In this document: piece by piece, positions 1 to 17,680 of the stretch
Layout of the letters: each line of letters begins with the position of its first letter
Position numbering within the stretch: the stretch's first letter is position 1
Source of the DNA: an uncultured delta proteobacterium
GTDB taxonomy: Bacteria; Desulfobacterota; BSN033; UBA1163
DNA length: 64,000 bases
Reading direction: 5' to 3'
Assembly: GCA_963827685.1 (NCBI GenBank)
Contig: CAWHBU010000003.1
Coordinates: forward strand, 608,001 to 672,000
The notes under the pieces: model-generated
Database searches by the model: none
What the model saw: the letters and a program-made list of their open reading frames with translations, nothing else
What the model was told of the DNA's origin: nothing
Position numbers and translations under genes: made by a program

Positions 1-894
1 CCTGATAAAGCTCTCGCTATTCTTAGGGAAAATTATATCGGAATAATCAACCTCAAGTCTCCCTAACACATTTAACTCTTTATCCTTGCTTGTCGTTATC
101 GTTACCATTCCTTCTTTCCCATTCTTACTTGCCTTAATTATTATATTCTCCTGCAAAACTTCATCCTTGTCGAAAATACCCTTCCTGGACTCAAAAATGT
201 GAATCCTCGTGATTCTTGCCTTCCGCAGAAACCATTTCCTGAAATTCTTATAGTAAAGACCCGAGCAAAAGCTCCGTGGCGTAATAAAAACCATCTCGCC
301 CTTATCGGCAAGCATGCTTGCAGCCATGGTCATAAAAAAAGCGTAAATATTAGGTTGCCCGCATATTAACTCTGCCATCATTCTTGAATAGGGAGATTCT
401 GTACCTACCTTGTAATAAGGAGGGTTCGAAATTACGAAATCGTAGAACTTTTCGCTCCTTTCAAATAGGCCGGGCCCGCTAAGATATGGCTTATTTGTGA
501 GTATGAAATCTTTGGTTAATACGTTAAACTCGAGCTTCAAGCCCTTTTCTTCCAAGTCCTTCTTGCACTCCTGTAAGACCTTTTTTAGGAGTGGAATTAT
601 TTCAGGGTCGTTCTCGTATGTGTCTATTACCAGAGAAACTGGCTTCTTTCTGCTCAGTAGCTTTTCACAAAACGCAGCTGACAGCACGCCTGTTCCAGCC
701 CCCGGGTCGAGCAGGGTTATCTTATCTCGGTTAATATCAAACAGCTCTGCCATAAAGATACTGACTTGCTTTGGGGTGAAAAACTGTCCCTCAGGTTTTA
801 TATCTGTTGGCCTTAAGACATTAGAGTACAAAGCGGAAAGTCTCTCCGCATACTCTACCAGCCCTTCGTTCTTTTGTCTTTCTGGAATCTTCAT
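1..894 (-). CDS. N6-adenine DNA methyltransferase (Eco57I/BsuBI-PstI-like R-M methylase), runs off the left edge
   Basis: Manual translation from ATG at 894: MKIPERQKNEG...GQFFTP...LLDPGAGTGVL (motif I)...DFVISNPPY (motif IV)...FITPRSFCSG. Absent from the ORF track because it has no stop in the window. Confidence 0.85.
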   Translation of the reverse strand, partial: MKIPERQKNEGLVEYAERLSALYSNVLRPTDIKPEGQFFTPKQVSIFMAELFDINRDKITLLDPGAGTGVLSAAFCEKLLSRKKPVSLVIDTYENDPEIIPLLKKVLQECKKDLEEKGLKLEFNVLTKDFILTNKPYLSGPGLFERSEKFYDFVISNPPYYKVGTESPYSRMMAELICGQPNIYAFFMTMAASMLADKGEMVFITPRSFCSGLYYKNFRKWFLRKARITRIHIFESRKGIFDKDEVLQENIIIKASKNGKEGMVTITTSKDKELNVLGRLEVDYSDIIFPKNSESFIR

Positions 895-1270: not shown

Positions 1271-4200
1271 TTAAGCAGCGCTTTCGGCGGAACCCGCTTC
1301 TCCACCTTCCGTCCCTACCTCTTCTTCGGTATACCCCTCCACCCAGAGCTCCAATTGTTTGTACTTAGAAAGACCCGTCCCTGCAGGAATCAGGCGTCCC
1401 ATGATCACATTTTCCTTCAACCCTTTTAGATAGTCCATCTTTCCTGCTACGGCCGCCTGCGTGAGTACTTTGGTGGTCTCCTGGAAGGAGGCGGCAGAGA
1501 TAAAACTATCTGTAATGAGCGAAGCCTTCGTGATGCCCAGGAAAAGAGGTTCTCCCACAGCGGGCTTTCCTCCTTCCCTCATGACTCGGGCATTCTCTTC
1601 CTGAAAGACATATTTTTCCACTTGGTCGTCCACCAAAAAGTGTGTATCTCCAACCTCTTTGATCTTTACTCTTTTCAGCATCTGGCGAACGATGACCTCG
1701 ATATGTTTATCGTTAATCTTGACCCCCTGGAGTTTATAAACTTCTTGGATTTCATCGACCAAATACCGGGCCAGGGCCTTGTCCCCCAATACTCTCAAAA
1801 TATCATGGGGATTGGAAGGGCCATCCATTAAGGCCTCCCCTGCCTTCACAAAATCGCCTTCATGGACGCTGACGTGTTTTCCTCTGGGAATCATATATTC
1901 CTTGGATTCACCTACGTCGGGTCGAATGACTACCTTCCTTTTCCCTTTGAGGTCCTTTCCAAATTCAACCATGCCGTCAATATCGCTGATCAAGGCATAC
2001 TCTTTGGGCTTTCTGGCTTCAAAAAGTTCAGCCACTCGAGGAAGACCTCCTGTGATGTCCTTCGTCTTGGTCGTCTCTCGCGGGATCTTCACGATGACAT
2101 CCCCGGCTTCCACCATATCTCCCTCGGAGATAAAAATGTTCGCCCCGACCGGAAGGAGATACCGAGCTTGGGAGGTAGAAGCAGGAAGATTCATGGTCCT
2201 GCCTTTTTCATCTTTGATGGAAATCCTCGGCCGAAGCTCTGCATCTTTTGATTCGGTGATCACTTTTCTCGAAAGGCCGGTAAACTCATCCACCTGTTCC
2301 TGCATGGTCGCCCCCTCGATGACGTCCCCGAATTTCACCCTCCCTGAGACCTCCGTCAAAACGGGGATGGAGTAAGGATCCCACTCTGCCAGGATCTCTC
2401 CTTCCTTTACCTTTTGCCCATCCTTGACCCTCAGTTTGGCGCCATAGATCACGGAATACCGTCTTCGTTCTCTTCCGTTTTCATCCAAGATGGCAATCTC
2501 TCCATTGCGGTTCATGACGATCAGGTTCCCTTCGCGGTTTTTGACGGTCTTGAGATTGATAAATTTTACCCTCCCGTCAATCCGGCATTCCAGCGTAGTC
2601 TGTTCTGCTCGCCGGCTGGCTGTTCCACCGATGTGGAATGTCCTCATCGTCAACTGGGTTCCCGGCTCACCAATCGACTGGGCAGCGATAATGCCGATCG
2701 CCTCCCCCACACCGACCAGTCTCCCTCGGGCCAAATCCCTTCCGTAACAGAGGGCACAGACACCTTGTCTCGATTTGCAGGTAAGCACCGATCGAATCTT
2801 GACCTTATCAATGCCGATATCCTCAATACGATCGGCCAAGGTCTCGTCAATTTCTTCATTCCCTTTGGCGATCACCTCATTAGAAAAAGGATCTCGGATT
2901 TCTTCCAAGGCCACACGGCCCAGAATTCTTTCTTTCATCGATTCGATGATCTCCCCTCCCTCGACGAGCGATTCGACTTCGATCCCGTCCAGGGTCCCAC
3001 AGTCATTCTCCCTGATCACGACGTCCTGCGCGACATCCACTAATCGTCGGGTGAGATATCCCGCATTGGCTGTTTTCAATGCGGTATCAGCGAGCCCCTT
3101 TCGAGCCCCATGGGTAGAGATGAAGTACTGCAGAACCGTCAGCCCTTCCCGAAAGTTCGCGGTGATAGGAGTTTCGATGATCTCTCCGGAAGGTTTGGCC
3201 ATCAAACCCCGCATCCCGGCTAATTGCCGCACCTGTTGGGCGCTGCCTCGAGCTCCGGAGTCGGCCATGATGTAAATGGGGTTTAAACTCTCCGTCGTCT
3301 GTTTCTCTCCGGAAGGGGCCACCACCTCCTCGCTCCCCAGTTCCTTCAACATCACCCCCGCAATGTTTTCAGTGACCTGAGCCCAGATGTCGATGACTTT
3401 ATTGTATCGCTCTCCATCTGTAATCAATCCCTCCGTATATTGTTCTTGAACCCTCTCGATCTCCTGCTGGGCTTCTTGAAGGAGTTTTTCCTTGTTGGAA
3501 GGAATCAGCATGTCATCGAGGGAGATGGAAATCCCGGCCAAGGTCGCATAATAATAACCCAGACCCTTCAACCGATCGGAGAGAAGGACCGTTTTCTTAT
3601 CTCCCCCATACCGGTAGCAATAGTCGATGAGATTGGCGAGCTCGCTCTTCTTCATCACCTTGTTGATCAATCGAAACGGGATCTCCTCAGGGAGAATCTC
3701 CTTCAGGAGGACTCGGCCTACGGTTGTCTCGACGAGCTCCCCATCCAATCGGACTTTCATCCGGGCATGGAGGTCGACTTCATTCGCATCGTAAGCGATT
3801 CGGACCTCTTCTGGATTGGAGAACACTTTTCCTTCCCCTTTGACATAGGGGCGCTCCCTGGTCATGTAATAAATTCCAAGGACGATGTCTTGGGTGGGGA
3901 TAATGATGGGTTTCCCATTGGCAGGGGAAAGGATGTTATTGGTGGACATCATCAGAATCCTCGCCTCTGCTTGGGCCTCCACGGAGAGGGGAACATGGAC
4001 AGCCATCTGGTCCCCATCAAAATCTGCGTTAAAGGCAGCACAGACCAACGGATGAAGTTGGATGGCCTTGCCCTCAATCAAAACGGGTTCGAAGGCCTGA
4101 ATCCCTAAACGGTGAAGGGTGGGAGCCCGGTTGAGGAGCACAGGATGTTCCCGAATCACTTCATCCAGAACATCCCAGACCTCGGGCCTCTCTTTCTCCA

Positions 4201-5401
4201 ACATCTTCTTAGCGCTTTTGATCGTGGTCACCAAACCTTTCTCTTCCAAACGGTGGTAGATGAAAGGCTTGAACAGTTCGAGGGCCATCTTCTTGGGAAG
4301 TCCGCACTGATGCAGTTTCAGCTCGGGACCGACGACGATCACCGAACGGCCGGAATAGTCCACGCGCTTCCCCAAAAGGTTCTGACGGAAACGGCCCTGC
4401 TTCCCTCTGAGCATATCGCTCAATGATTTGAGAGGTTTCTTATTCGCCCCCAAGATCGTCCTCCCTCTCTTTCCGTTATCGAACAGGGCATCCACGGCTT
4501 CCTGAAGCATTCGCTTCTCGTTACGGATGATGATCTCCGGAGCGTTCAATTCGAGAAGCCGTTTGAGACGGTTGTTTCGATTGATGACCCTTCGGTAAAG
4601 GTCGTTGAGATCGGAGGTGGCAAACCGACCCCCATCCAAGGGGACAAGAGGGCGAAGATCAGGCGGGATGACGGGAACGACTTCCAAAATCATCCATTCC
4701 GGTTTGTTCCCTGATTCCAAGAAAGACTCAATAATTTTGAGTCGTTTGGCTAATCTCTTTTTTTTGGCCTCCGAGCTTGTCTCTTTCATTTCAGTCCGGA
4801 GCTTCTGCGAAAGTTCTTTCACATTGGTGTTTCTTAACAGCTCGCGAATCGCATCCGCCCCCTGGGACGCCGCAAATTCATCCCTGTATTTCTCCCTGGC
4901 CTCCCGATATCGATCTTCAGAAAGAATTTCACCCTTCTTCAGAGGCGTTTTCTTCCCATCGAGAACAAGGTAGGCTTCGAAGTAGAGAATCCGCTCTAAT
5001 TCTCTTAGTGTCATGTCCGAAAGGATCCCGATCTTACTGGGGATGCTTTTGAGGAACCAGATATGCGCCACAGGGGTGGCCAGCCGGATATGCCCCATCC
5101 TCTCTCTGCGCACCTTGGACTGGATGACTTCCACCCCGCACTTCTCACAGACAATGCCTCGATGTTTCATCCGTTTGTATTTACCGCAATTGCATTCATA
5201 ATCTTTGGTGGGACCAAAGATTTTGGCACAGAAGAGCCCATCTTTTTCCGGCTTGAAAGTCCGATAGTTAATGGTCTCCGGCTTCTTCACCTCTCCATGG
5301 GACCACGATTCAATCTTTTCTGGAGAGGCGATGGAGATCCGGATGGCATTATAACTAATCGGGCTTTTCGCCTTTTCAAAGAATGATAGATAATCTTCCA
5401 A
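1271..5401 (-). CDS. rpoC: RNA polymerase beta' subunit
   Basis: NADFDGD catalytic motif and N-terminal Zn finger. Start reassigned to TTG at 5401 (AGGAGG 7 nt upstream); the ORF-track extension to 5458 is translated repeat DNA. Confidence 0.98.
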
Positions 5402-5420
5402 TGTCTTCCTCCTTTTTTGA

Positions 5421-5525
5421 GACGATGAACGACGAACGATAAACGATGAACTGTTCATAGTTCATTGTCATTGCTCATGGTTCATTGTTCATCGTTCATA
5501 GTCCATAGTTCATCGTTCATGGTTC
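5421..5525. repeat. Inverted heptamer array (CGATGAA / TTCATNG) between rpoB and rpoC
   Basis: gacgatgaacgacgaacgataaacgatgaac followed by about 10 TTCATNG-like units. Confidence 0.85.
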
Positions 5526-5527
5526 CG

Positions 5528-8500
5528 TTAGATCTCTTCCCTCTTCTCTTCAATCAGTTCTGTATCGAGACAAAGGCTCTGTAACTCTTTGACCAAAACA
5601 TTAAACGATTCTGGCAATCCGGGCTCCAACGTGTGTTCCCCTTTGACGATCGCCTCATAGACCCGAGTCCTTCCCGCGACATCGTCCGACTTTACGGTCA
5701 AGAATTCCTGCAAGGAGTGGGCTGCCCCATAGGCCTCCAGAGCCCACACCTCCATCTCCCCTAACCGTTGTCCTCCGAACTGAGCTTTGCCGCCCAACGG
5801 TTGCTGTGTCACCAAAGAATAAGGACCGATGGACCGGGCATGAATCTTATCGTCTACCAGGTGGTGCAATTTGAGGAGGTACATATAGCCTACGGTCACC
5901 TTCTGGTGAAAAGGTTCTCCGGTTCTTCCGTCATAAAGGATCGTTTGCCCAGTCGTCGGAAGCCCGGCTTTCTTCAATAGGTCTTTAATCTCTTCTTCTG
6001 AAACGCCATCGAACACAGGAACCGAAACAAAAATCCCCTCGCCCAGTTTACGAGCCAACTCGATAATCTCTTCGTCGGTCGCTTGCTCCAGATATTCATT
6101 CATCTCTTTTGAGGAATAGATTTCTTTAATCTTTCTTCGAAGCAATTTGGGGTCGAAATGTTTCTGCAAAAACTCCTCAATCTTCCATCCGAGACCCTTG
6201 GCAGCCCATCCCAGGTGGGTCTCAAGAATTTGGCCCACATTCATTCGTGAGGGGACGCCTAATGGGTTGAGGATGATTTCGACCGGGGTCCCGTCTTCTA
6301 AATGAGGCATATCCTCCTCAGGGAGAATTCGGGAGATGATCCCTTTGTTCCCATGACGTCCGGACATTTTATCCCCAACAGAGAGTTTCCGCTTTATGGC
6401 AATGTGGACCTTGACGGTCTTGATGACGCCCGGAGCCAGCTCGTCTCCCCTCTTCAGTTTAGCCAATTTATCTCCAAAAACTCCCTTGACCACATTGATC
6501 TGGAGCTCTGCATGATCGAGAAAACGGTGAACGTCAGGAAGAACTCTCTTCCCCTCCGTCACATCAATCTCCTTGAGTCGATCCAAGGGAATGGCATAGA
6601 GATGCTCTTCTTTGATCCGTTCTTTGGCATCCAAATAGACCCGGTTTTTCTTCTCATCCGCAATTTTATGGGCGGCTTTTTTACCGATCAGATATTTTCC
6701 GATCTTTCTCCGCGTACTATTCTGGATGATTCGGATCTCATCGGCTTGATTTTTTAACAACCTTACTTTCTCTTGGTCCTCAATCGCCTTCGTCCGCTCG
6801 TCCCTTTCCTGCCCTTTCCGGGAGAAGACCTTGGCATCGATCACGATCCCTTCAATCCCGTGAGGGACTTTCAATGAGGTATCTCGAACATCTCCCGCTT
6901 TTTCACCAAAGATGGCTCGAAGGAGTTTCTCTTCCGGAGAGAGTTGGGTTTCCCCCTTGGGGGTCACTTTTCCGACCAGAATGTCACCGGACTTCACCTC
7001 GGCTCCGATCCGGATAATCCCGCTCTCATCAAGATCCTTCAAGGCTTCTTCCCCTGCATTGGGAATATCACAGCTAATCTCCTCTTTTCCCAATTTCGTG
7101 TCCCGAGCCACACACTCCAATTCTTCGATATGAATCGAGGTATAGGTATCTTCTTTCAGCAACTTTTCGCTAATGAGAATGGAATCCTCAAAGTTATATC
7201 CTCCCCAAGGCATAAAGCCGACCAGGACATTCCTTCCCAATGCCAGCTCTCCCATATGGGTCGCTGGCCCATCCGCAATCACTTCACCCTTTTTGACCCG
7301 TTCCCCGATACGGACGATCGGTCTTTGATTAATGCAGGTATTCTGGTTGGATCGCTTGTACTTGATCAACGTATAAATGTCAACGCCAGGATCGTCCTCC
7401 TTCTGCCCATCTTCATCGGCACGGATGACGATACGCGAAGCATCCACGTCTTCTACAACACCGTCCCTTTTGGCAACCACCGTCACTCCAGAATCTCTCG
7501 CCACAATGGCTTCCATTCCCGTTCCAATCAACGGGGCATCCGTCCTGAGGAGAGGAACGGCTTGTCGTTGCATATTCGATCCCATCAGGGCTCGGTTGGC
7601 ATCATCGTTTTCCAAAAAGGGAACCAGGGAGGTGGCCACGCTTACCAACTGTTTTGGAGAAACATCCATGTACCGAATTTCCTCGGGTTTCACCATCATA
7701 AATTCGCCCCCTCTTCGGGCAGAGATGAGCGGGGCGATAAATCTCCCTTCTCTATCCAGAGTGGCATTGGCTTGGGCGATGGCGGGCTTCTGTCCGTCGA
7801 TTTCTTCCTCTTCATCCAGAGCAAAAAGATATCGGATATGATTCGTGACCTTCCCATTGATCACTTCCCGATAAGGGGTCTCAATAAATCCATAGTCATT
7901 GACGCGGGCATAGGTGCTGAGAGAGGTGATCAAGCCAATGTTCGGACCCTCTGGGGTCTCGATGGGACAGATTCGGCCATAATGAGTGGGGTGGACGTCC
8001 CTCACCTCAAACCCTGCCCTCTCTCGGGTGAGCCCTCCAGGGCCCAGGGCGGAGAGCCGACGCTTGTGAGTAATCTCGGAGAGAGGATTCGTCTGATCCA
8101 TAAACTGGGAAAGCTGACTCGAGCCAAAAAACTCTTTGATCACAGCCGAGAGGGGTTTTGAGTTGATGAGATCATGGGGCATTAAGGTTTCCACATCTTG
8201 GAGGCTCATTCGCTCCTTGATCGCCCTTTCAATCCTCACCAGCCCAATGTGATATTGATTTTCCAAGAGCTCCCCAACAGTCCTCACCCGTCGGTTTCCC
8301 AAGTGGTCAATATCGTCAACAGCACCCTGACCATCCTTCAGTTTGATTAAGTACTTGACGACCTCGAGAATATCCCTCCTTCTCAGGGTGGTCTTCTCAT
8401 CTTCCAGAATCTTTCGAACCTTGCCTTGAACATCATCCGTGATGCTTCCGTCCTTCAAGGTAGGCATGAGCCCGATGGGATAAAGGATCTTGGCAATGCG

Positions 8501-9994
8501 TTGAATCTCTTCGGCCATCTCCGGCGTAGCAATCGCTTCGTCAAAATCAAGCCATCCCTCCGAGATGCGATCGACCAGCTCTCTCCCTCCTGCATAGGCC
8601 GCTCCAGCCGCTAACGCCTCTTTCTTCCATCTTTCGGTCAACACCAACACTCTGGGAGGGTTTCCCTTCAGACCGATTTTATGGTTCAACTTCATCCTTC
8701 CCACTTTGGAGAGGTCGTAGCGTTCCGCGTTGAAGAAAAGATTGTAGAAGAGGCCGATGGCTGTCTCAATGGTAGGAGGATCTCCAGGACGGAGCCTTTT
8801 GTAAATGTCAATCAAGGCCCTTTCGGATTCCTTTTCACGAAGGGACTTGCCAGACTCGAGAACGGGCAATTTCTCTCTTTCTTCTTGGGTCAACCCAATC
8901 TTATCCACCACCAAGGTATCCCGCAATGAGGAGCTGACATTAATGTTATCGATGAACAGGATTTCGAAGACCTCGATCTTCCTCTCTTTCATCTCGTTCA
9001 GAAGCTTCTCCGTAACCTCATCGTTACATTCGGCAATGACTTCTCCTGTTTCGGGGTCGACCACATCCTTCGCCAGGTATCGACCGATCAGATCCTGAAC
9101 CTCCACCGAAATGGTATTGATCTTGGCCAATTCCAATTTTTTAAAAGCGTCTTCTGTAATGCGACGATGTTTCTTGAGGATGATCTTATGGGTTTCCGGA
9201 TCTAAGATATCGGAGGTCGCCTTCTGTCCCACCAACACGTCTTTCGAAATCTCTTTTTGGAATCTCCCTCTCCGGATGAGAACCTTTTCCCTATGATAGA
9301 AATAGTCCAGAAGTTCTTCTCCAGTGTATTTGAGAGCCCGAAGGAGGACGGTGACAGGAATCTTTCGACGTCGGTCGATCCGAACATGGAGAAGATCTTT
9401 CTGATCAAATTCGAAGTCAATCCAAGATCCCCGGTAGGGAATGATGCGTCCATAATAGAAAACCTTCCCACCGCTATGGGGTTTGATTTGATCCTGATCA
9501 AAAAAGACTCCCGGGGAGCGATGAAGTTGGCTGACGATCACCCGTTCGGTCCCGTTTACAATAAACGTTCCGTTTTCGGTCATGAGAGGGATTTCACCAA
9601 AATAGACTTCTTGCTCTTTGACGGCTTTGATGCTCTTGGCCTTGGTCTCTTCATTCACATCCCAAACCACTAAGCGAACCGTCACCTTAATGGGTGCCGC
9701 ATAGGTCATCCCCCTTAACAAGCATTCTTCTACATCATATTTCGGCTCGGTGAGACGGTAGTTCACGAAATCGAGAGAAGCGGTTTCATAAAAATCTTTG
9801 ATCGGGAAGACGGTTCTAAAGACCGCTTGCAGGCCGACGGGCTCCCGTTTGTCCGGATCCACATTGGCCTGTAGAAACTGTTCGTAGGATCTTTTCTGAA
9901 CCTCGATCAGATTGGAGATCTCTAACACTTCTTTAATTTTTGAAAAGTTCTTCCGATACCTTCGATAGATAGGGACAACGCTCGGCATAATCAC
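5528..9994 (-). CDS. rpoB: RNA polymerase beta subunit carrying an L1-domain-II-like insertion
   Basis: Motifs [42 protein letters not shown]; 1488 aa. Confidence 0.98.
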
Positions 9995-10185
9995 TCCTCT
10001 CCCTTAAGAGAGCTCTCAAAAACTACTGCACGCTCTCTTTGGAGATTTCTGAGCTTTTTCGGAAATCTCCCTTAAATAGAAAGTCTCCTCCCGCTCGGAC
10101 TGTCACCTAACATTCTCTTTGTCCTTCTGGGAAGAGACCACAATATTCCTTGCCCGGCGTAGCCGGAACCAAACAGGGTTTGCGA

Positions 10186-10265
10186 TCACAAATTCCAAAT
10201 GACCGAAACAATCTTGCTTGGAATTCGATTTTTGTTCATTGGAGCTTATTTGTAATTTGGTGCTT
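10186..10265. repeat. Degenerate inverted heptamer array (AAATTCC/AATGACC vs TTGGAAT/TTGGTNC)
   Basis: Same repeat class as 40163-40330. Confidence 0.5.
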
Positions 10266-10344
10266 CGCTTAACAAGAGAAATCTATTATTGCCAATTTGG
10301 TAACAATCTAATTTCTAAGCGCCAGAATACCTCTGAATGTTTCC

Positions 10345-10734
10345 TCACTTAACTTCGACCGTCCCCCCGCCTTCTTCAAGCTTTTTCTTCATCGTTGCGG
10401 CTTCGTCCTTCGAAACCCCTTCTTTAACTGGCTTGGGGACACCTTCAACAAGGTCTTTGGCTTCCTTCAAACCCAACCCGGTCAGTTCCCTGACCACTTT
10501 GATCACCTGGATCTTCTTATCACCAAAACCCGTCAGGATCACATCAAATTCTGTCTTCTCTTCAGACGGGGCGGCTTCCGCCCCGGCGACTGCCCCAGCA
10601 ACTGGCATGGCCGCCATTGTCATCGGCACAGAGGCCTTGATTCCCAATTTTTCTTCCAAGACCTTCACCAAGTCACGCGCTTCCAACAAGGTTAACCCAC
10701 CGATCTCTTCAGCAATTTTTTGGATGTCTGCCAT
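10345..10734 (-). CDS. rplL: 50S ribosomal protein L7/L12
   Basis: [10 protein letters not shown]...[24 protein letters not shown]. Confidence 0.98.
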
Positions 10735-10821
10735 TTTGAAAATCCTCCTATCTTATTAATTAGAAAGTGGAATGTGGAAAGCGGCCCAAAAGCCTATCCT
10801 CTCTCCTCCACTTTTTTAACG

Positions 10822-11358
10822 TTATGTTTCAGATCCTGTTTGTTTCTCCAGTTGATCGACACGGGCCTGAAGGATTCCAAGCGTCCGCTGAATCGCATTG
10901 TACAGAACTGCTCCAAGTTGACTGGCTGTCCCCTGAATCCCTCCCAGGACTTGCCCAAAAAGCACTTCACGAGAAGGCATCGTTGCCAGGGCCTTAACCT
11001 CTTCAGGAGACGCCACCTTTCCTTGAATCAACCCGACCTTAATTTCAAGGTTGGGTTGTATTTTGACGAATTCCAATAAGATCTTTGCCAAAAGGACGGG
11101 ATCTCCATAAGAAATCGCCATCGCTGTGGGTCCTTCAAAATAGTTATCCAGTTTCTCCAAGTCCGTCCCTTTAGATGCCAGTTTCATCAGCGTATTTTTG
11201 ACCACGTGATAGGAAATCTTCTCTTCCCTTAACCGTTGCCTCAAACGACTCATCTGCTCAACATTGAGCCCCCGGTGATTGGTCAGGACAACAGCCCGAA
11301 ACCCCTTTACCCGTTCACCAAGATCTGATACGACCTGTGCTTTCTCTTTCCGATTCAA
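10822..11358 (-). CDS. rplJ: 50S ribosomal protein L10
   Basis: VVKNTLMKLA, FEGPTAMA; conserved operon position. Confidence 0.97.
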   Translation of the reverse strand: MNRKEKAQVVSDLGERVKGFRAVVLTNHRGLNVEQMSRLRQRLREEKISYHVVKNTLMKLASKGTDLEKLDNYFEGPTAMAISYGDPVLLAKILLEFVKIQPNLEIKVGLIQGKVASPEEVKALATMPSREVLFGQVLGGIQGTASQLGAVLYNAIQRTLGILQARVDQLEKQTGSET

Positions 11359-11395
11359 CGAACGCTACCTCCTCCGATGAAGTCCGTCGCCTTTC

Positions 11396-12103
11396 TTAGG
11401 ACTTCAAAACATTTCTCACATCAAGTGGGTCAATTTTAATTCCAGGCCCCATGGTTGTGGATAAGGCAATGCTACGTAAATAGATCCCTTTGCTGGTCGG
11501 TGGTTTTGCCCGCATGATCACTTCCAGAAGCGTTTTGATGTTTTCTGACAATTGACCAAATCCAAAAGAGACCTTTCCTACAGGGACATGGATCACCCCG
11601 GCTTTCTCGACTTTAAACTCCACCTTGCCTGCTTTGATCTCTTTGACGGCCCTTTCCAGATCGAAGGTAACGGTTCCCACTTTGGGGTTGGGCATCAAAC
11701 CACGAGGCCCTAAAATCTTCCCCAATTTGCTGACCAAACCCATCACGTCCGGCGTAGCAACCGCTTTGTCAAACTCCAACCACCCTTTTGAAACTTTCTC
11801 AATGAGGTCTTCTCCTCCCACGAAATCGGCACCCGCATCCAATGCCTCTTTCTCTTTCTGACCTTTTGCAAAGACCAATACCCGGACCTTCTTGCCCGTT
11901 CCATGGGGGAGGACAACGGTTCCTCGAACCATTTGGTCTGCTTTCTTAGGATCGACCCCAAGGCGAATAGCGAGGTCCACTCCTTCATCAAATTTAGCGT
12001 ACGCCGTCTCCAAAAGAAGTTTAACGCCTTCCTCCAGTTCGTACCGTTTGTTTCGATCAACCTTGCCTCTTGCCTCTAAATATTTTTTCCCTCTCGTTGC
12101 CAT
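11396..12103 (-). CDS. rplA: 50S ribosomal protein L1
   Basis: [26 protein letters not shown]. Confidence 0.98.
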
Positions 12104-12112
12104 AATCTTCTC

Positions 12113-12535
12113 TTATTCAATCTCCAGACCCATGCTCCTTGCTGTCCCCTCGATCGTGCGGATCGCACCCTCCATGTTCACGGCGTTAAGATCTTTGAAC
12201 TTAATTTGGGCAATCTCCCGAATCTGGTCTCTGGTGACTTTGCCCACTTTGTTGCGATTGGGTTCCCCAGAACCTTTCACAATTTTTGCCGCCTTCTTCA
12301 AAAGAATGGAAGCAGGCGGAGTTTTGGTCACAAAGTTGAAGGACCGATCTGAATAGATAGTGATCACCACGGGGATGATCATTCCTTCTTGTCCCTGGGT
12401 CCGACCGTTAAAGGCTTTGCAAAACTCCATGATGTTGACCCCGTGTTGTCCCAGGGCCGGCCCGACCGGGGGAGAAGGGTTGGCTTGCCCTGCCTGAATT
12501 TGAAGCTTTACCATTGCCGCCACTTTCTTTGCCAT
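12113..12535 (-). CDS. rplK: 50S ribosomal protein L11
   Basis: [23 protein letters not shown]. Confidence 0.98.
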
Positions 12536-12559
12536 TGCTCACTCCTCAAATGAGGACCA

Positions 12560-13090
12560 TCAATTCTTTTCCACTTGGATAAAATCCAGTTCGACTGGAG
12601 TCGCTCTTCCAAAGATAGAGACTAAAACCTTCAATTTCCTTTTTTCAGGTTTGACCTCTTCAATGGTCCCAATAAAGTTGACGAAAGGACCGTCGATGAC
12701 TCGAACGCTATCTCCGACGCCTAAAGAAACTTTAGGTTTTACCCTCGAAACACCTTCTTTCATTTGAGACAAGATCTCATCAACCTCTCCCTCTGAGATG
12801 GGGATCGGTTTGGTACCATCGCCGGCAAAACCCGTGATTTTTGGGGTGTCCTTGACGATATGCCATGTCTCCTCGTTCAATTCCATTTTCACCAATATAT
12901 ATCCAGGGAATATCTTTCTCTGGGAGGTCTTTCTCTTTCCCTTCACCAACTCCACCACGGTCTCCATGGGGACTAATATGTTGGAGAAAAATTCTCCCTT
13001 GCCCAAGTTTTTAATTCGTTCTTCTAAATTCTGTTTGGCCCTGTTTTCGAAACCTGAATAGGTGTGGACCACATACCACTGTTGCGTCAT
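12560..13090 (-). CDS. nusG: Transcription elongation factor NusG
   Basis: [21 protein letters not shown] (VIDGPF...[12 protein letters not shown]). Start likely ATG 13090 (ORF track 13129). Confidence 0.96.
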
Positions 13091-13134
13091 AATGTTTACC
13101 ATTTGAATGGAGGAGGAAGTCCATTCCATCCCTT

Positions 13135-13353
13135 TTAACTCACTGCCCTCTTCAATAATTGCTTGATGAGATTTGACAGCCCAGAATCAACAATCCCTAA
13201 GAAGATGGCAATGATAAAAACAGCCACCAAAACAACAAGGGTACCCGAAAGGGTATCCTTCCTTGAAGGCCAGGTTACCTTTTTCAGTTCGGTTTTAACC
13301 TCCCTTAAAAATTGTATTGCCGCTTCAAATTTGTCTTTAATTGAAAATTCCAT
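13135..13353 (-). CDS. secE: Preprotein translocase SecE
   Basis: [17 protein letters not shown] plus one TM helix. Confidence 0.96.
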
Positions 13354-13380
13354 CTATTCTATTCCATAAGTAATATGGCA

Positions 13381-13462
13381 GCCGTGAACCATGTAAGATT
13401 CCTGGCTTGCCATGAACCTAGCATGGTACATGGCTTGCCACGTACCGAATATGGTTCATGGC
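13381..13462. repeat. Three tandem 28-bp palindromic units abutting the tRNA-Trp 3' end
   Basis: Consensus GCCATGAACC-N6-GGTTCATGGC-TT at 13381, 13409 and 13437. Confidence 0.85.
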
Positions 13463-13535
13463 AGGCCAGGAGGGATTCGAACCCCCATCACCCGGATTTG
13501 GAGTCCGGTGCTCTATCCGTTAGAGCTACTGGCCT
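13459..13535 (-). tRNA. tRNA-Trp (CCA)
   Basis: AGGCCAGTAGCTC...CCGGA-CT-CCA-AA-TCCGG...GGTTCGAATCC...GCCTGCCA. Confidence 0.96.
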
Positions 13536-13618
13536 GTATCTCTATCTGGACAGTAGAGAGCAGAGAGTGGAATGTCGATAGAAATATAAAACAACCCTCC
13601 ACTTTCTACTTTCCATGT

Positions 13619-13768
13619 CTATTTCGTCTCTTTATGAACGGTATGTTTACGACAGAACCGGCAATATTTCTTGAACTCCAACTTATCCGGAGTGGTCCGC
13701 TTATTCTTAGTCGTAGAATAGTTCCTCCGCTTACACTCTGTACAGGACAAAGTCAAAATATTCCTCAT
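13619..13768 (-). CDS. rpmG: 50S ribosomal protein L33 (Zn-ribbon, C+ type)
   Basis: Manual translation: [49 protein letters not shown] (49 aa, below ORF-track cutoff). Confidence 0.95.
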
Positions 13769-13802
13769 CAAATACTCCTAAACGGGAGGTTTACCCTCTC
13801 CG

Positions 13803-15002
13803 TTATTCGAGGACATCACTGATGACGCCTGCCCCCACGGTACGACCCCCCTCCCGAATCGCAAACCGCAACTCCTTCTCCATCGCGATCGGCGTAATCA
13901 ACTCCACCGTCAACGCCACATTGTCCCCTGGCATCACCATCTCCACCCCCTCCGGCAATGCCGCCACCCCCGTCACATCCGTCGTCCGAAAATAAAACTG
14001 CGGCCGATATCCATTAAAAAACGGCGTATGCCGACCCCCCTCCTCCTTCGTCAAGATATACGCCTCCGCCTTAAACTTCCGATGCGGTGTGATCGACCCA
14101 GGCTTGGCCACCACCTGACCTCGCTCCACCTCCTCACGCTTCACCCCTCGAAGCAACGCCCCGATGTTATCCCCCGCCTGACCCTGATCCAACGTCTTAC
14201 GAAACATCTCCACCCCCGTACACACCGTCTTCATCGTCGGCCGTATCCCTACCACCTCCACCTCATCACCCACCTTGATCACCCCTCGCTCTACCCTCCC
14301 CGTCACCACCGTCCCCCGACCCGAGATGCTAAACACATCCTCTATCGGCATCAAAAACGGCTTGTCAATATCCCGAACCGGCTCCGGGATATACGTGTCC
14401 ACTGCATCCATCAGCTTCCAAATCCCACTACACCACTGACAATCCGGCTTCCCACAACCACACTCCAGAGCCTTCAAGGCACTGCCCCGTATCACCGGCG
14501 TCGACTCCCCAGGAAAATCATACCCCGATAGTAACTCCCTGACCTCCAACTCCACCAAATCCAATAACTCCGGATCTTCCACCATGTCCACCTTGTTCAA
14601 AAACACCACGATGTAAGGCACTCGCACCTGCTTGGCCAACAACACATGCTCCCGCGTCTGCGGCATCGGCCCATCCGCCGCCGACACCACCAAGATCGTC
14701 CCATCCATCTGCGCCGCCCCCGTGATCATATTCTTGATATAATCCGCATGCCCCGGACAATCAATGTGCGCATAATGACGCTTCGCCGTCTCATACTCCA
14801 CATGCGCAATCGCTATCGTCAACCCACGCTCCTTCTCCTCCGGCGCCTTATCAATCTGATCAAACGCCATATAGGAGGCCAAATGCTTCGTCGCCAATAC
14901 CTTCGTGATCGCTGAGGTCAACGTCGTCTTCCCATGATCCACATGACCGATCGTCCCCACATTGACATGCGGCTTCGTCCTCTCAAATTTCGGCTTCGAC
15001 AT
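13803..15002 (-). CDS. tuf: Elongation factor Tu
   Basis: [31 protein letters not shown]. Confidence 0.99.
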
Positions 15003-15053
15003 GGCTCAAACCCTCCTTATCTCTCGAAAAGATCTTTCAATCCACCTTTTCCT

Positions 15054-15129
15054 TGGAGCCCACGATCGGATTTGAACCGATGACCTCTTCCTTACCAAGG
15101 AAGTGCTCCACCGACTGAGCTACGTGGGC
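15054..15129 (-). tRNA. tRNA-Thr (GGT)
   Basis: GCCCACG...CTTCC-TT-GGT-AA-GGAAG...GGTTCAAATCC...CCA. Confidence 0.96.
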
Positions 15130-15212
15130 CAAAAATAAAGAAAAACCTGTCAATCAAAAAGACAGGCTGGCCGAATTATTTAAAGATAAATTAACAATAC
15201 AATTTATCACAA

Positions 15213-15288
15213 TGGAGCGGGAAACGGGGATCGAACCCGCGACCCTCAGCTTGGAAGGCTGATGCTCTACCAACTGAGCTACTCCCGC
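15213..15288 (-). tRNA. tRNA-Gly (TCC)
   Basis: GCGGGAG...TCAGC-CT-TCC-AA-GCTGA...GGTTCGATCCC...CCA. Confidence 0.96.
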
Positions 15289-15504
15289 GTATGAATAAGA
15301 AGCAATCTTCACCAATCGCAGATATCCAATCACCAAATTTTCTTCTCGCCTTATTTAAGTCAAAACCCTTCCGGTGAAGATCAAACTCTCCCCCTGTCAT
15401 GCCTGACAGAGGTAGATAATGAACCACGCTTACGGCGTTTGAATTATTCAATTTGAATTTAATAATAAGGTTGAATGGTTCAGACAATCGCCCGCTGGCA
15501 AGCC

Positions 15505-15589
15505 TGGTGGAGAGGGGAGGATTCGAACCTCCGAAGGCATCGCCAACAGATTTACAGTCTGTCCCCTTTGGCCGCTCGGGAACCTCTCC
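15505..15589 (-). tRNA. tRNA-Tyr (GTA)
   Basis: GGAGAGG...ACAGA-CT-GTA-AA-TCTGT, long variable arm, CCA end; 85 nt. Confidence 0.96.
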
Positions 15590-15701
15590 GACTCTAAATC
15601 CTCATTTTTTTGATTGAACATTTCCTCCTGGTATAGAAAAAGAATGGGAAATCAATGAGTTACATTAGTGGAATAAGGATCACAAAGAATTTAACTTATT
15701 A

Positions 15702-15730
15702 TTATTAACAAAATAATTCCTTTTTGTCAA
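15702..15730 (-). promoter_or_regulatory. Putative sigma70 promoter of the tRNA-tuf operon
   Basis: TTGACA-N17-TAATAA on the minus strand, with AT-rich upstream DNA. Confidence 0.55.
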
Positions 15731-15769
15731 GAAATTTTTTAAGAATTTTGAAAAAAAATAAATAATTCC

Positions 15770-15798
15770 TTGCCCCTAACTCTGCTTACCCATATACT
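15770..15798 (+). promoter_or_regulatory. Putative sigma70 promoter of the cytochrome gene
   Basis: TTGCCC-N17-TATACT, 50 bp before the start. Confidence 0.4.
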
Positions 15799-15847
15799 AT
15801 ATTTCAGCCTCATTCCAAATCTAAATCAATGATGGGGGGTACTCGCT

Positions 15848-17680
15848 GTGAAAAAATTGGGAGGGTGCTTTTTGACCATTTCAGTCGCACTGTCTTTCTC
15901 TCTGTTTTATGCCACTTCAATCCTTTCCCAAGATACATTCCATCAAAAGATTACCCTTAAGGGATTCGATGGGCGTTCACTTACCTTTGAGAGTAAAATG
16001 CCTTACAGCCCTAAAAAAACCTGTGGGGGCTGCCACGATTATAATCAAATTACTAATGGTTACCATTTCCAGCAAGGCCGGACGGATGGAACGGGTAAAA
16101 TCGTCGTGAGTGATACATTCGACCCCAAATATCCTTGGAGTCTGTCCTCAGGCATGTATGGCAAGTTTATGCTGGCTTCTATGGATTCAAGCCAATTGGC
16201 TAAGAAAGTTAATCAACATCCCTCTGAAATTGACAAATCCTCTTTTTCTTTTGTTCAGAATTGCGGGGTCTGCCACCCCGGAGGGGGATGGGGTGAATAT
16301 GATCGGAGCGGTCACCTTTACTATGACGAAGAAAGTAAGAAGTTCGGTTATGAAGATTCAGAAGGAAGTCATCTGTTGGATGGAGACTATACTCCGTTTA
16401 GTAATGGGGATGCTCAATACGGAGCTCCCTGGGACCAAAGCGGCGTGAGCGAAGCCGACTGTCTCATCTGCCACTTAAAGGGGTATCAATGGAAAGAACG
16501 GGCCGCGACCTTGAGAGGAAAGTTTTTTAAGTACGGGCCTACGGTTGGAGTCGGATGGGCGAATATTAAACTCTCTCAGGATGAATCGGGAAATTCAAAA
16601 GTGGATGAGGTAACAGTAGATTATGCCAAAAAAGACGTGGCTGATTTCGAAAATCTTCACCTTCAGATTGTAAGAAGACCCCCTGACGAGAATTGTTGGT
16701 CCTGCCATGCCACGGCTGACGGAAAAAGGAGAGGTCGTCAGTGGAATCCAGAAAAGGATGTCCATAAAGCTAAAGGCCTCCACTGCCTCTCCTGCCATCC
16801 CAGCGATAAGGAGCATCATTTTGCTAAAGGAGATACCATCCAGCAGACAGTGCGAAATGACTTGAACAATAGCATGTATTCCTGCGAAGACTGCCATTAC
16901 AAAGGCAAGGACAAGAAAGCGCCCAGATACAAACATCCTTTCTCCCCACGTCATTTGAAGCTTATCGCCTGTCAGACTTGCCATATTCCCTTTCTGACCA
17001 CCCCAGCAGACCTCGTTTATGAATATGCCTCAACGGGAAAGCCTCTTGTCTATGATACCTCAAAATTTCTCTCCAATGATCCTCTGAACCCCAAAAAGCC
17101 AGTCCCTGGAGTAGACCCAAACATCTGGTATCCTGCTACAACAAAATGGAAGGGTAGAATCGTTCCTGTTAAATCATTAGCGGTTAGCTACTGGGGAGAC
17201 GTGGATCCAAAGACCAATGTGGTGAGACCAATCCCCCTTTGGAAGATACAGGAATTGAAAAAACCCCCTCTCAAAGATGACAATGGAGATGGAATTCCCG
17301 AAGTGAATTCTCTTGATGAAATCAAAGCCTTTTTGAAGGCACTGAAGGGGAATGATAAATATGGGAATCCTGTAGCCTTACATCCCGTGTTGATGAAAGG
17401 CGGTTTTCTTTACCAGCTGGATAAAAAAGGAGAGGTGGAAAAGATGAAACACGAGCAGGCTGAAGTTCTTGACTTCTCTCTCAGCCATAATGTGATGTCC
17501 GGACCGGATGTCATCGGTGCTCGGGGTTGCAAGGAATGCCATGCTAAGAACTCTTCGTTCTTCTTAAGAAAAGTTCTGATCGATCCTTACGATGAGAAAG
17601 GGAAACCCGTCTATATTGAAAATTGGGAACGTCTCGGAATCGATAAAGAAAAATTGAGCCGACTTTTACTGGATCAATAA
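15848..17680 (+). CDS. Exported octaheme cytochrome c
   Basis: Signal peptide and eight CXXCH motifs (CGGCH, CGVCH, CLICH, CWSCH, CLSCH, CEDCH, CQTCH, CKECH). Confidence 0.9.
   Translation: MKKLGGCFLTISVALSFSLFYATSILSQDTFHQKITLKGFDGRSLTFESKMPYSPKKTCGGCHDYNQITNGYHFQQGRTDGTGKIVVSDTFDPKYPWSLSSGMYGKFMLASMDSSQLAKKVNQHPSEIDKSSFSFVQNCGVCHPGGGWGEYDRSGHLYYDEESKKFGYEDSEGSHLLDGDYTPFSNGDAQYGAPWDQSGVSEADCLICHLKGYQWKERAATLRGKFFKYGPTVGVGWANIKLSQDESGNSKVDEVTVDYAKKDVADFENLHLQIVRRPPDENCWSCHATADGKRRGRQWNPEKDVHKAKGLHCLSCHPSDKEHHFAKGDTIQQTVRNDLNNSMYSCEDCHYKGKDKKAPRYKHPFSPRHLKLIACQTCHIPFLTTPADLVYEYASTGKPLVYDTSKFLSNDPLNPKKPVPGVDPNIWYPATTKWKGRIVPVKSLAVSYWGDVDPKTNVVRPIPLWKIQELKKPPLKDDNGDGIPEVNSLDEIKAFLKALKGNDKYGNPVALHPVLMKGGFLYQLDKKGEVEKMKHEQAEVLDFSLSHNVMSGPDVIGARGCKECHAKNSSFFLRKVLIDPYDEKGKPVYIENWERLGIDKEKLSRLLLDQ

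Follow-up and report, generated by a model that had tools for sequence, protein, structure and literature searches.

What is a ribosomal-protein domain doing inside one of the subunits that make up the RNA polymerase (RNAP) of a bacterium, and where did it come from? The question is raised by rpoB, the gene for the RNAP beta subunit (5528..9994, minus strand), in a 64,000-nucleotide stretch of the genome of an uncultured delta proteobacterium (the window; assembly GCA_963827685.1, contig CAWHBU010000003.1, positions 608,001 to 672,000; gene coordinates below are those of the window). The gene was assigned from the list of open reading frames (ORFs), its translation and six Rpb2 Pfam domains, and its product matches one further Pfam family, Ribosomal_L1. 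A first-pass annotation of the window had proposed that RpoB carries, where it normally has a short loop, a diverged copy of domain II of ribosomal protein uL1, duplicated locally from rplA and fixed in an essential gene. What we find is an insertion restricted to one lineage, placed where the beta lobe has a known hot spot for such events, yet built from a ribosomal-protein domain.

The insert and its resemblance to uL1 domain II

The insert comprises 84 residues, amino acids (aa) 447-530 of RpoB (PRVLVL...RKIL; 8405..8656, minus strand). RpoB is 1488 aa long when counted from its GTG start, as are all residue numbers given here; a 100%-identical database RpoB has 1486 aa, homologues on record beginning 2 residues later. 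On either side of the insert lie a conserved upstream segment (aa 425-446; 8657..8722, minus strand) and a downstream flank (aa 531-555; 8330..8404, minus strand), both placed by sequence mapping to the Protein Data Bank (PDB) and by alignment. The exact limits were set by a clean gap of 84-85 columns in other aligned RpoBs: in two sister families, a Binatia metagenome-assembled genome (MAG) and a Holosporales MAG, ...GRMKLN.KLGLKGVP is joined directly to ED.TVLRR.DI. The segment singled out by the first-pass annotation, residues 443-534 with its flanks, is present as quoted in the minus-strand translation, and the sister-family alignment places the true insert 4 residues inside those limits at each end.

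On the evidence of profile and pairwise comparisons, the insert is homologous to domain II of uL1. Ribosomal_L1 (PF00687) is the only Pfam family to match it (58.1 bits, with the curated cut-off at 32.2; E 1.2e-15; RpoB 427-532), BLASTP of RpoB against the window's own L1 aligns 47/119 identical residues (39%, E 2e-21), and the 92-residue stretch first noticed, when searched against the whole 5.2-Mb genome, matches only itself and rplA (47% identity, E 3.4e-20). At the level of profiles, hhalign of 29 inserts against 57 L1 domain II segments gave a probability of 99.8% (E 1.9e-28) and 49% identity over 82 columns. When the bare 84-residue insert was searched against the PDB at E up to 10, 46 distinct sequences were matched, every one a ribosomal protein L1 and none an RNAP chain. 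The proposed likeness to L1 domain II, including the Ribosomal_L1 profile match, is therefore well founded.

The counterpart in the window is an intact two-domain uL1 of 235 aa (rplA, 11396..12103, minus strand; PF00687 236.7 bits, profile positions 1-198), in which the homologous domain II covers aa 72-156 (KVRVLVF...AVKEI; 11636..11890, minus strand, from the L1 protein alignment); relative to L1, the insert has a one-residue deletion. Domain I is absent from the insert, as the match covers no more than positions 28-139 of the 198-position profile and, before position ~43, runs over conserved RpoB sequence, and what was taken in is, by this coverage, an L1-derived domain and not a complete two-domain L1 protein. 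In Thermus L1, domain II is itself an insert in domain I, with hinge residues 66-71 and 159-160 (PMC2175363), and its hinge glycines lie ~4 Angstrom apart, such that the domain can be deleted without disturbing domain I (PMC2175363; PMC10931766). The limits of the RpoB insert coincide with this excisable domain as it is described there (PMC2175363). We also note that the L1 match runs on upstream of the insert with few identities (RpoB 412-446 against L1 41-71 in BLASTP and Pfam; 8657-8760 against 11891-11983, both minus strand), an extension that may be due to chance or to old microhomology at the junction.

A comparison of the 29 inserts with the 57 L1 domain II segments, drawn from the phylum and one Binatia MAG, separates what the module kept from what it lost. 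Twenty-three positions are common to at least 90% of both sets, and this shared core of hydrophobic residues, glycines and prolines includes GW.DFD, ATP and G.MP..K.GT.T. Seven positions with at least 90% conservation among the sampled L1 sequences have acquired a different residue, which is fixed in the inserts (A>T453, K>E454, K>R476, D>E492, V>I497, R>I507 and N>S512). The sixth of these is the arginine of the GPRG loop, which is Arg in 57/57 sampled L1 and Ile in 29/29 inserts, and the mean net charge is -1.1 for the inserts and -0.3 for L1 domain II. In Thermus L1, Arg135 of the GPRG loop enters the groove of helix 77 (H77) of 23S rRNA (PMC3602588), and domain I suffices for specific RNA binding (PMC2175363; PMC10931766). 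The loss of this arginine from every insert compared makes L1-type RNA binding by the module unlikely.

In an AlphaFold2 model of aa 435-542 (mean pLDDT 78; 10-residue block means of 77-90 over the domain), calculated from an alignment that held both inserts and L1 rows, the predicted elements are strand, helix, strand, helix, strand, long helix and helix. The same insert elements were obtained in a model of aa 147-625 calculated without L1 rows, with block pLDDT values of 60-77. The module resembles uL1 domain II in the 23 core positions and may do so in its order of strands and helices, as predicted from the alignment with L1 rows, and differs from uL1 in being embedded in RpoB without domain I, and hence without the L1 RNA-recognition surface, as well as in the GPRG substitution.

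Distribution and constraint in an uncultured family

The carriers form one family of uncultured sediment and wetland bacteria within the Thermodesulfobacteriota. In the genome collection that we used, the order to which the window belongs consists of this single family (f1), and the class contains two others (f2 and f3). Fifty-two of the 55 genomes of the order, from 21 genera, were matched: 51 have two matches, the insert and rplA, and one (G048) has three pieces of a broken copy, interrupted by one TGA. The three match-less genomes (69, 79 and 87% complete) are also without an rplA match, and the insert is therefore found in every genome of this family-rank clade in which the gene cluster was assembled. 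Among sister-family genomes at least 85% complete, 4/5 (f2) and 4/4 (f3) have a match in rplA only, and the RpoBs of these families are 1394-1408 aa long with both flanks adjacent. The clade that carries the insert can thus be mapped to one family.

Wider surveys gave the same picture. Across 301 genomes sampled evenly from the phylum, PF00687 was found in 299, and more than one match was present only in the sample's 12 f1 genomes and in 4 others; in these 4, the extra matches proved to be pieces of a split rplA (open frames of at most 265 aa) and were set aside. A scan of named records, with one genome per species, returned 37 loci, 35 of which are RpoB with the insert, all from MAGs labelled Thermodesulfobacteriota, Syntrophaceae, delta proteobacterium or similar; two of these loci are cut by contig ends and one (L066) is frameshifted across the whole of rpoB. 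The remaining two loci were rejected as carriers, L067 (Binatia) being rplA and L068 (Holosporales) an RpoB that lacks the insert. In a protein collection with precomputed Pfam labels, PF00687 is present on all 120 listed of 136 matching RpoBs. No full-length carrier appeared among the best 150 matches of a search of whole-library representatives, the top four being RpoB fragments, because carrier RpoBs cluster with insert-less ones; that search therefore says little about carriers elsewhere.

Might a chimeric contig, through faulty assembly or binning, have joined rplA sequence into rpoB? Databases do contain chimeras of this kind, such as P0285 and P0380, two singleton ORFs in which L1 is joined to pieces of RpoB, and for this reason P0285 and the L1 part of P0380 were rejected as inserts. 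Such fusions, like the frameshifted rpoB of L066 and the TGA-interrupted copy of G048, are database artefacts that can mimic or obscure the insert. As an explanation of the insert itself, an artefact is vanishingly improbable, since the insert shares no more than 47% identity with the genome's own rplA, is in frame and of constant length, turns up in many projects (52 genomes and 35 named MAG loci), and is bridged by contigs of four independent runs. In these contigs, from two DNA and two RNA-library runs, both junctions are spanned and there is no joint, and a single 988-base RNA-library contig covers 8100-8947 in one piece at ~91% likeness; being contigs, they attest to presence and continuity, not to expression level. 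No insert-less form of the gene or transcript, as expected of an intein or intron, was seen in the contigs of the four runs, in which rare forms could have been missed. The argument from divergence that had been raised against misassembly holds, and the junctions bear it out.

Among the 29 complete copies the insert is always 84 aa long, 32 of its 84 positions are invariant, and pairwise identities range from 0.68 to 0.99. We estimated pairwise ratios of nonsynonymous to synonymous substitution rates (dN/dS) by the Nei-Gojobori method. Of the 325 pairings among 26 genomes, 85 were used, selected on upstream-flank dS and not independent of one another. The values were 0.085 for the insert, 0.051 for the lobe upstream of it, 0.012 for the segment downstream and 0.048-0.054 for three parts of rplA. 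The insert is under purifying selection. Together with its presence in 52/55 genomes at unvarying length, this sustains the earlier view that the domain became fixed in an essential gene and, with the GPRG isoleucine, lends support to the hint of a changed role.

The insertion site and the possible role of the module

To place the insert on the enzyme, its flanks were mapped to solved beta chains. The upstream flank corresponds to E. coli beta up to ~408-414 (query 5-52 to chain 361-408) and the downstream flank from ~414-420 (query 7-70 to chain 420-483), which puts the insertion point at ~408-420, by extrapolation ~414/415, in a surface loop of the beta2 lobe. The placement originally suggested, in the beta lobe just before a named segment, holds by this mapping and by alignment. 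At this site E. coli has no extra residues, and several other solved chains, which we take to be the mycobacterial, Thermus and cyanobacterial enzymes, have room for only 0-4 (by extrapolated table coordinates). In chain 6wvj_C (1193 aa), 84 residues stand between the same flanks (interval ~286-369), and there are 83, 105 and 106 in three further solved chains and 20 in one. We assume that 6WVJ is the B. subtilis elongation complex, which the length of the chain fits. The statement that RpoB normally has a short loop here is thus correct for E. coli, but some solved chains have 83-106 unrelated residues in its place.

Published accounts rank the beta2 lobe among the least conserved regions of RNAP and treat it as a hot spot of lineage-specific insertions, mostly of unknown function (PMC7749167; bioRxiv 10.1101/2021.06.06.447298). 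Within the B. subtilis insertion SI1/bi5, residues ~300-310 are reported to form the hairpin on which PcrA docks with its C-terminal domain (PMC8318588), and these residues are contained in the 6wvj_C interval. Judged from flank mapping, the L1 module occupies this known hot spot, at the site of Firmicutes bi5/SI1. It shares with bi5/SI1 (beta-ln5) the insertion point, the restriction to a lineage and the position on the beta2 lobe (PMC7749167, PMC8318588); unlike it, the L1-like insert matches no RNAP chain in the PDB, and there is no sequence relation between the two.

The two differ, too, in where the helicase motif lies. The interaction motif for the PcrA/UvrD C-terminal domain is given as VDPETGEIL in B. 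subtilis and IDESTGELI in E. coli (PMC8318588), and a match in the window's RpoB, VDPETGEVI, is found at aa 312-320 (9035..9061, minus strand), upstream of the insert and outside the module, whereas the Firmicutes insert carries the PcrA-binding TGE hairpin itself. The L1 module would therefore be an addition to an already complete lobe. As an internal, self-folding RNAP insert whose distribution follows a clade, it is comparable to the BBM2/BEAN and SBHM/HABAS modules (PMC11515920), but it belongs by sequence to a different fold family, with only Ribosomal_L1 matched. A separate feature of the same lobe is a charged segment at aa ~375-398 (8800-8872, minus strand), which is common to the sister families and in part to Binatia, and is missing from the best-matching solved beta chains, where it corresponds to a 21-residue gap.

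The reading that we favour, and to which as a whole statement we give a probability of about 0.6, is that the module is a docking or steric element that gave up the RNA contacts of L1. It would no longer work as L1, domain I being absent and the H77-groove arginine now an isoleucine, and it would broaden the lobe's outward surface, serving a lineage-specific partner as a folded docking or steric element. Inserts at this hot spot have been proposed to play such a part; Firmicutes bi5/SI1, at the same site, docks the C-terminal domain of the PcrA helicase. Several points weigh against this reading. The function is inferred; purifying selection inside an essential protein may reflect a mere need to stay folded; the position equivalent to Arg130 is still basic in the inserts (K in 97%), and the kept residue may allow some nucleic-acid contact; and the model of aa 435-542 leans toward the L1 fold because its alignment contained L1 rows.

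The retained basic residue also bears on a different idea, that the module has a role directed at RNA that it inherited from the L1 stalk, contacting tRNA elbows, nascent RNA or rRNA and so tying the polymerase to translation or RNA folding. In the ribosome, residues of domain II near the GPRG loop contact H77 and the elbow of the E-site tRNA (PMC3602588), the GLMP...K.GT loop is conserved in the inserts along with the lysine, and RNA-library contigs hold the insert in frame. Such a role is nevertheless quite improbable, because the specific RNA binding of L1 sits in domain I (PMC2175363), which the module lacks, because the groove arginine is Ile in all 29 copies, and because the net charge is slightly more acidic than that of L1 domain II. 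It is somewhat less far-fetched, if still unlikely, that the module is a passenger, a stable self-folding domain in a permissive loop that has no partner or effect and is conserved only since its misfolding would harm an essential enzyme. The mostly unexplained insertions at this hot spot (PMC7749167; bioRxiv 10.1101/2021.06.06.447298) and the adjacent ends that make domain II excisable from L1 (PMC2175363) are what a passenger would lead one to expect, as is the beta prime subunit, in which no family-specific insert was seen when rpoC was compared in 5 genomes of f1, f2 and f3 (one unbroken, collinear match each). Against it stand a length that does not change across 21 genera, a dN/dS of 0.085, and the replacement and subsequent fixation of residues at seven L1-invariant positions, surface residues included, together with a long stem branch in the tree of inserts. 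The seven fixed replacements and the long stem are better accounted for by a shift to a new constraint than by mere maintenance of the fold.

Source of the domain and possible further captures of ribosomal domains

We propose that in an ancestor of the family the part of an rplA that codes for domain II was inserted in frame into rpoB, and that the donor was most likely the cell's own rplA, which lies ~3 kb upstream in the same gene cluster. Since the ends of domain II are ~4 Angstrom apart, it could have been placed in a loop without disturbing the host fold. Capture would have been followed by a period of fast evolution, seen as the long stem branch, and then by a freeze. The inserts form one clade in our trees (support 100/99 to 100/100) with a stem of 0.85 changes per column, the median end branch being 0.1. 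The GC content at third codon positions (GC3) is 0.608 in the insert and 0.593 in the rest of rpoB, no compositional anomaly of the insert being evident from codon-position GC relative to the host gene, and 151/263 nucleotides are identical between the insert and the corresponding segment of the genome's own rplA.

Whether the insert descends from that rplA depends on where it attaches among the L1 sequences. When the tree was limited to L1 sequences of known placement (76 rows), the insert, 14/15 f1 and 5 f2 L1 sequences are split off together at 96/88, and an approximately unbiased (AU) test does not reject a clade of the insert with the L1 of its own and the sister family (p 0.342, log-likelihood difference 15.9). 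Other results do not converge on this placement. When 49 best-scoring library representatives are added, the insert joins six unnamed L1 sequences (98/84); when 12 rows that are long or odd in composition are left out (113 rows), it has no supported place; bootstraps were unsettled in all three trees; and the mean number of residues identical to L1 domain II is flat across f1 (40.0), f2 (41.5), f3 (39.9), the phylum (39.6) and the representatives (38.0). The tree of insert versus L1 domain II thus gives a firm answer on the unity of the inserts and a different placement in each dataset, and with the attachment unstable across the three datasets, local capture is plausible and not demonstrated.

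These same results could be explained if the domain had come by horizontal transfer or recombination from the L1 gene of another phylum and not from the neighbouring rplA. The grouping with the six unnamed L1, away from those of f1 and f2, would then be the correct one, a nearby representative is labelled Nocardioidaceae, and it would be natural that the family's own L1 sequences are no more identical to the insert than other L1 are. We think a foreign donor unlikely, if by no means outlandish. The representatives were chosen for their best score against the insert and are biased toward it, and several have long branches or an odd composition; a tree that leaves the representatives out puts the insert with the f1 and f2 L1, the AU test does not reject the local clade, and the codon-position GC matches that of the host gene. 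In addition, a domain at the same site in Rhodocyclaceae, described below, resembles the product of the rplL directly upstream. An origin in the cell's own rplA would be the simplest reading; it is not contradicted, and we hold it to be moderately better than an even bet. The local duplication originally put forward is to that extent plausible on the 76-row tree and the AU test, although the donor tree is unstable.

No description of an RpoB insert derived from L1 or bL12 was found in a search of the full-text literature that covered result listings and the papers cited here; the earlier remark that no L1-derived RNAP insert was known agrees with this. A 2024 survey of insertional domains in beta and beta prime places the lineage-specific beta inserts in a single fold group, BEAN, and proposes that the neighbouring nusG, uL1 and uL11 genes may have influenced domain acquisition; its main text names no L1-derived insert (PMC11515920). 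The architecture is visible in databases even if undescribed, precomputed Pfam labels already showing PF00687 on carrier RpoBs. Previous accounts of lineage-specific RNAP inserts present them as repeats of a small set of dedicated folds (BBM2/BEAN, SBHM/HABAS) of obscure source. Here the source family can be named: it is that of a ribosomal protein encoded 3 kb upstream, within the same conserved cluster, and the excised piece is exactly the self-contained insert domain of uL1. The result would be a concrete, datable case in which an enzyme that ranks among the cell's most conserved captured a domain, and it supports the published suggestion that gene neighbourhood shaped RNAP insertions. The insert also provides a clean molecular marker for an uncultured family, and RpoBs with and without the module are a natural variant pair, ready for asking what the beta-lobe hot spot does.

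The cluster itself is of the usual kind. The first 16 kb of the window hold, on the minus strand, tuf, tRNAs, nusG (12560..13129; Pfam NusG and KOW), rplK (uL11, 12113..12535; Pfam L11 N-terminal and RNA-binding domains), rplA, rplJ (uL10, 10822..11358; Pfam Ribosomal_L10), rplL (bL12, 10345..10734, directly upstream of rpoB; Pfam Ribosomal_L12 and L12_N), rpoB and rpoC (beta prime, 1395 aa, 1271..5458; Pfam Rpb1 domains). No Rfam ribosomal-protein leader reached its gathering score within 9900-16000, where only four tRNAs were found. The region downstream of rpoC is the usual place of ribosomal-protein genes; here an ORF that is open at the window edge (1-894, minus strand) directly follows rpoC and has Eco57I-type and N6 DNA methylase domains.

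A second ribosomal-protein-like segment in the same RpoB loop came to light through P0380, which was found among long proteins sharing words with L1 domain II, a search that returned mostly fused gene calls and singleton chimeras. The RpoB fragment of this chimera has ~70 extra residues in the loop, and they match the C-terminal domain of Pfam Ribosomal_L12 (PF00542) over its full length with 21.9 bits, short of the 25.9-bit cut-off. The segment is common to 128 long RpoBs; all 120 that were listed carry it (P0397-P0516, most of 1427 aa), and the named carriers are Rhodocyclus, Azovibrio, Azospira, Accumulibacter, Dechloromonas, Propionivibrio, Azonexus, Ferribacterium, Quatrionicoccus and Oryzomicrobium. 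When five full Rhodocyclaceae RpoBs were scanned, one scored 27.4 bits, over the cut-off, two scored 17.7 and 14.8, and two gave nothing at E up to 0.1. Comparison by hhalign of 93 distinct Rhodocyclaceae inserts with 39 bL12 C-terminal domains gave a probability of 84.7% (E 6.7e-6, 67 columns). A hidden Markov model of these inserts matched 37 of 3411 six-frame ORFs of the loci, and the matched ORFs that were checked by position adjoin rpoB upstream, where rplL sits.

As in the family studied here, the Rhodocyclaceae piece sits in the same RpoB loop (after GRMKFNRR and before LSPRDI) and resembles a ribosomal protein encoded just upstream; it differs in being related to bL12 and not to uL1, in its occurrence in another phylum that has cultured species, and in its weaker similarity. 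Its presence suggests that domains of ribosomal proteins encoded in this cluster entered the loop on more than one occasion, the evidence for bL12 being weaker than that for L1, and that the L1 event is perhaps not unique. A bolder version, which we regard as a long shot, would make the bi5 loop a recurrent sink for the ribosomal domains encoded upstream in rplKAJL-rpoBC, with partner binding kept in part and the polymerase thereby tied to the translation machinery; if so, the captured modules might retain some of their old partners, the tRNA elbow or L1-stalk ligands for uL1 and the translational GTPases for bL12. Finally, in P0155, a 463-aa protein in a cluster of 5 that includes P0273-P0276 (contigs up to 42 kb), an L1 domain II-like segment (aa 119-227; PF00687 90.5 bits) is combined with a C-terminal FGE-sulfatase domain (PF03781), and this protein may represent another capture of L1 domain II outside the ribosome.

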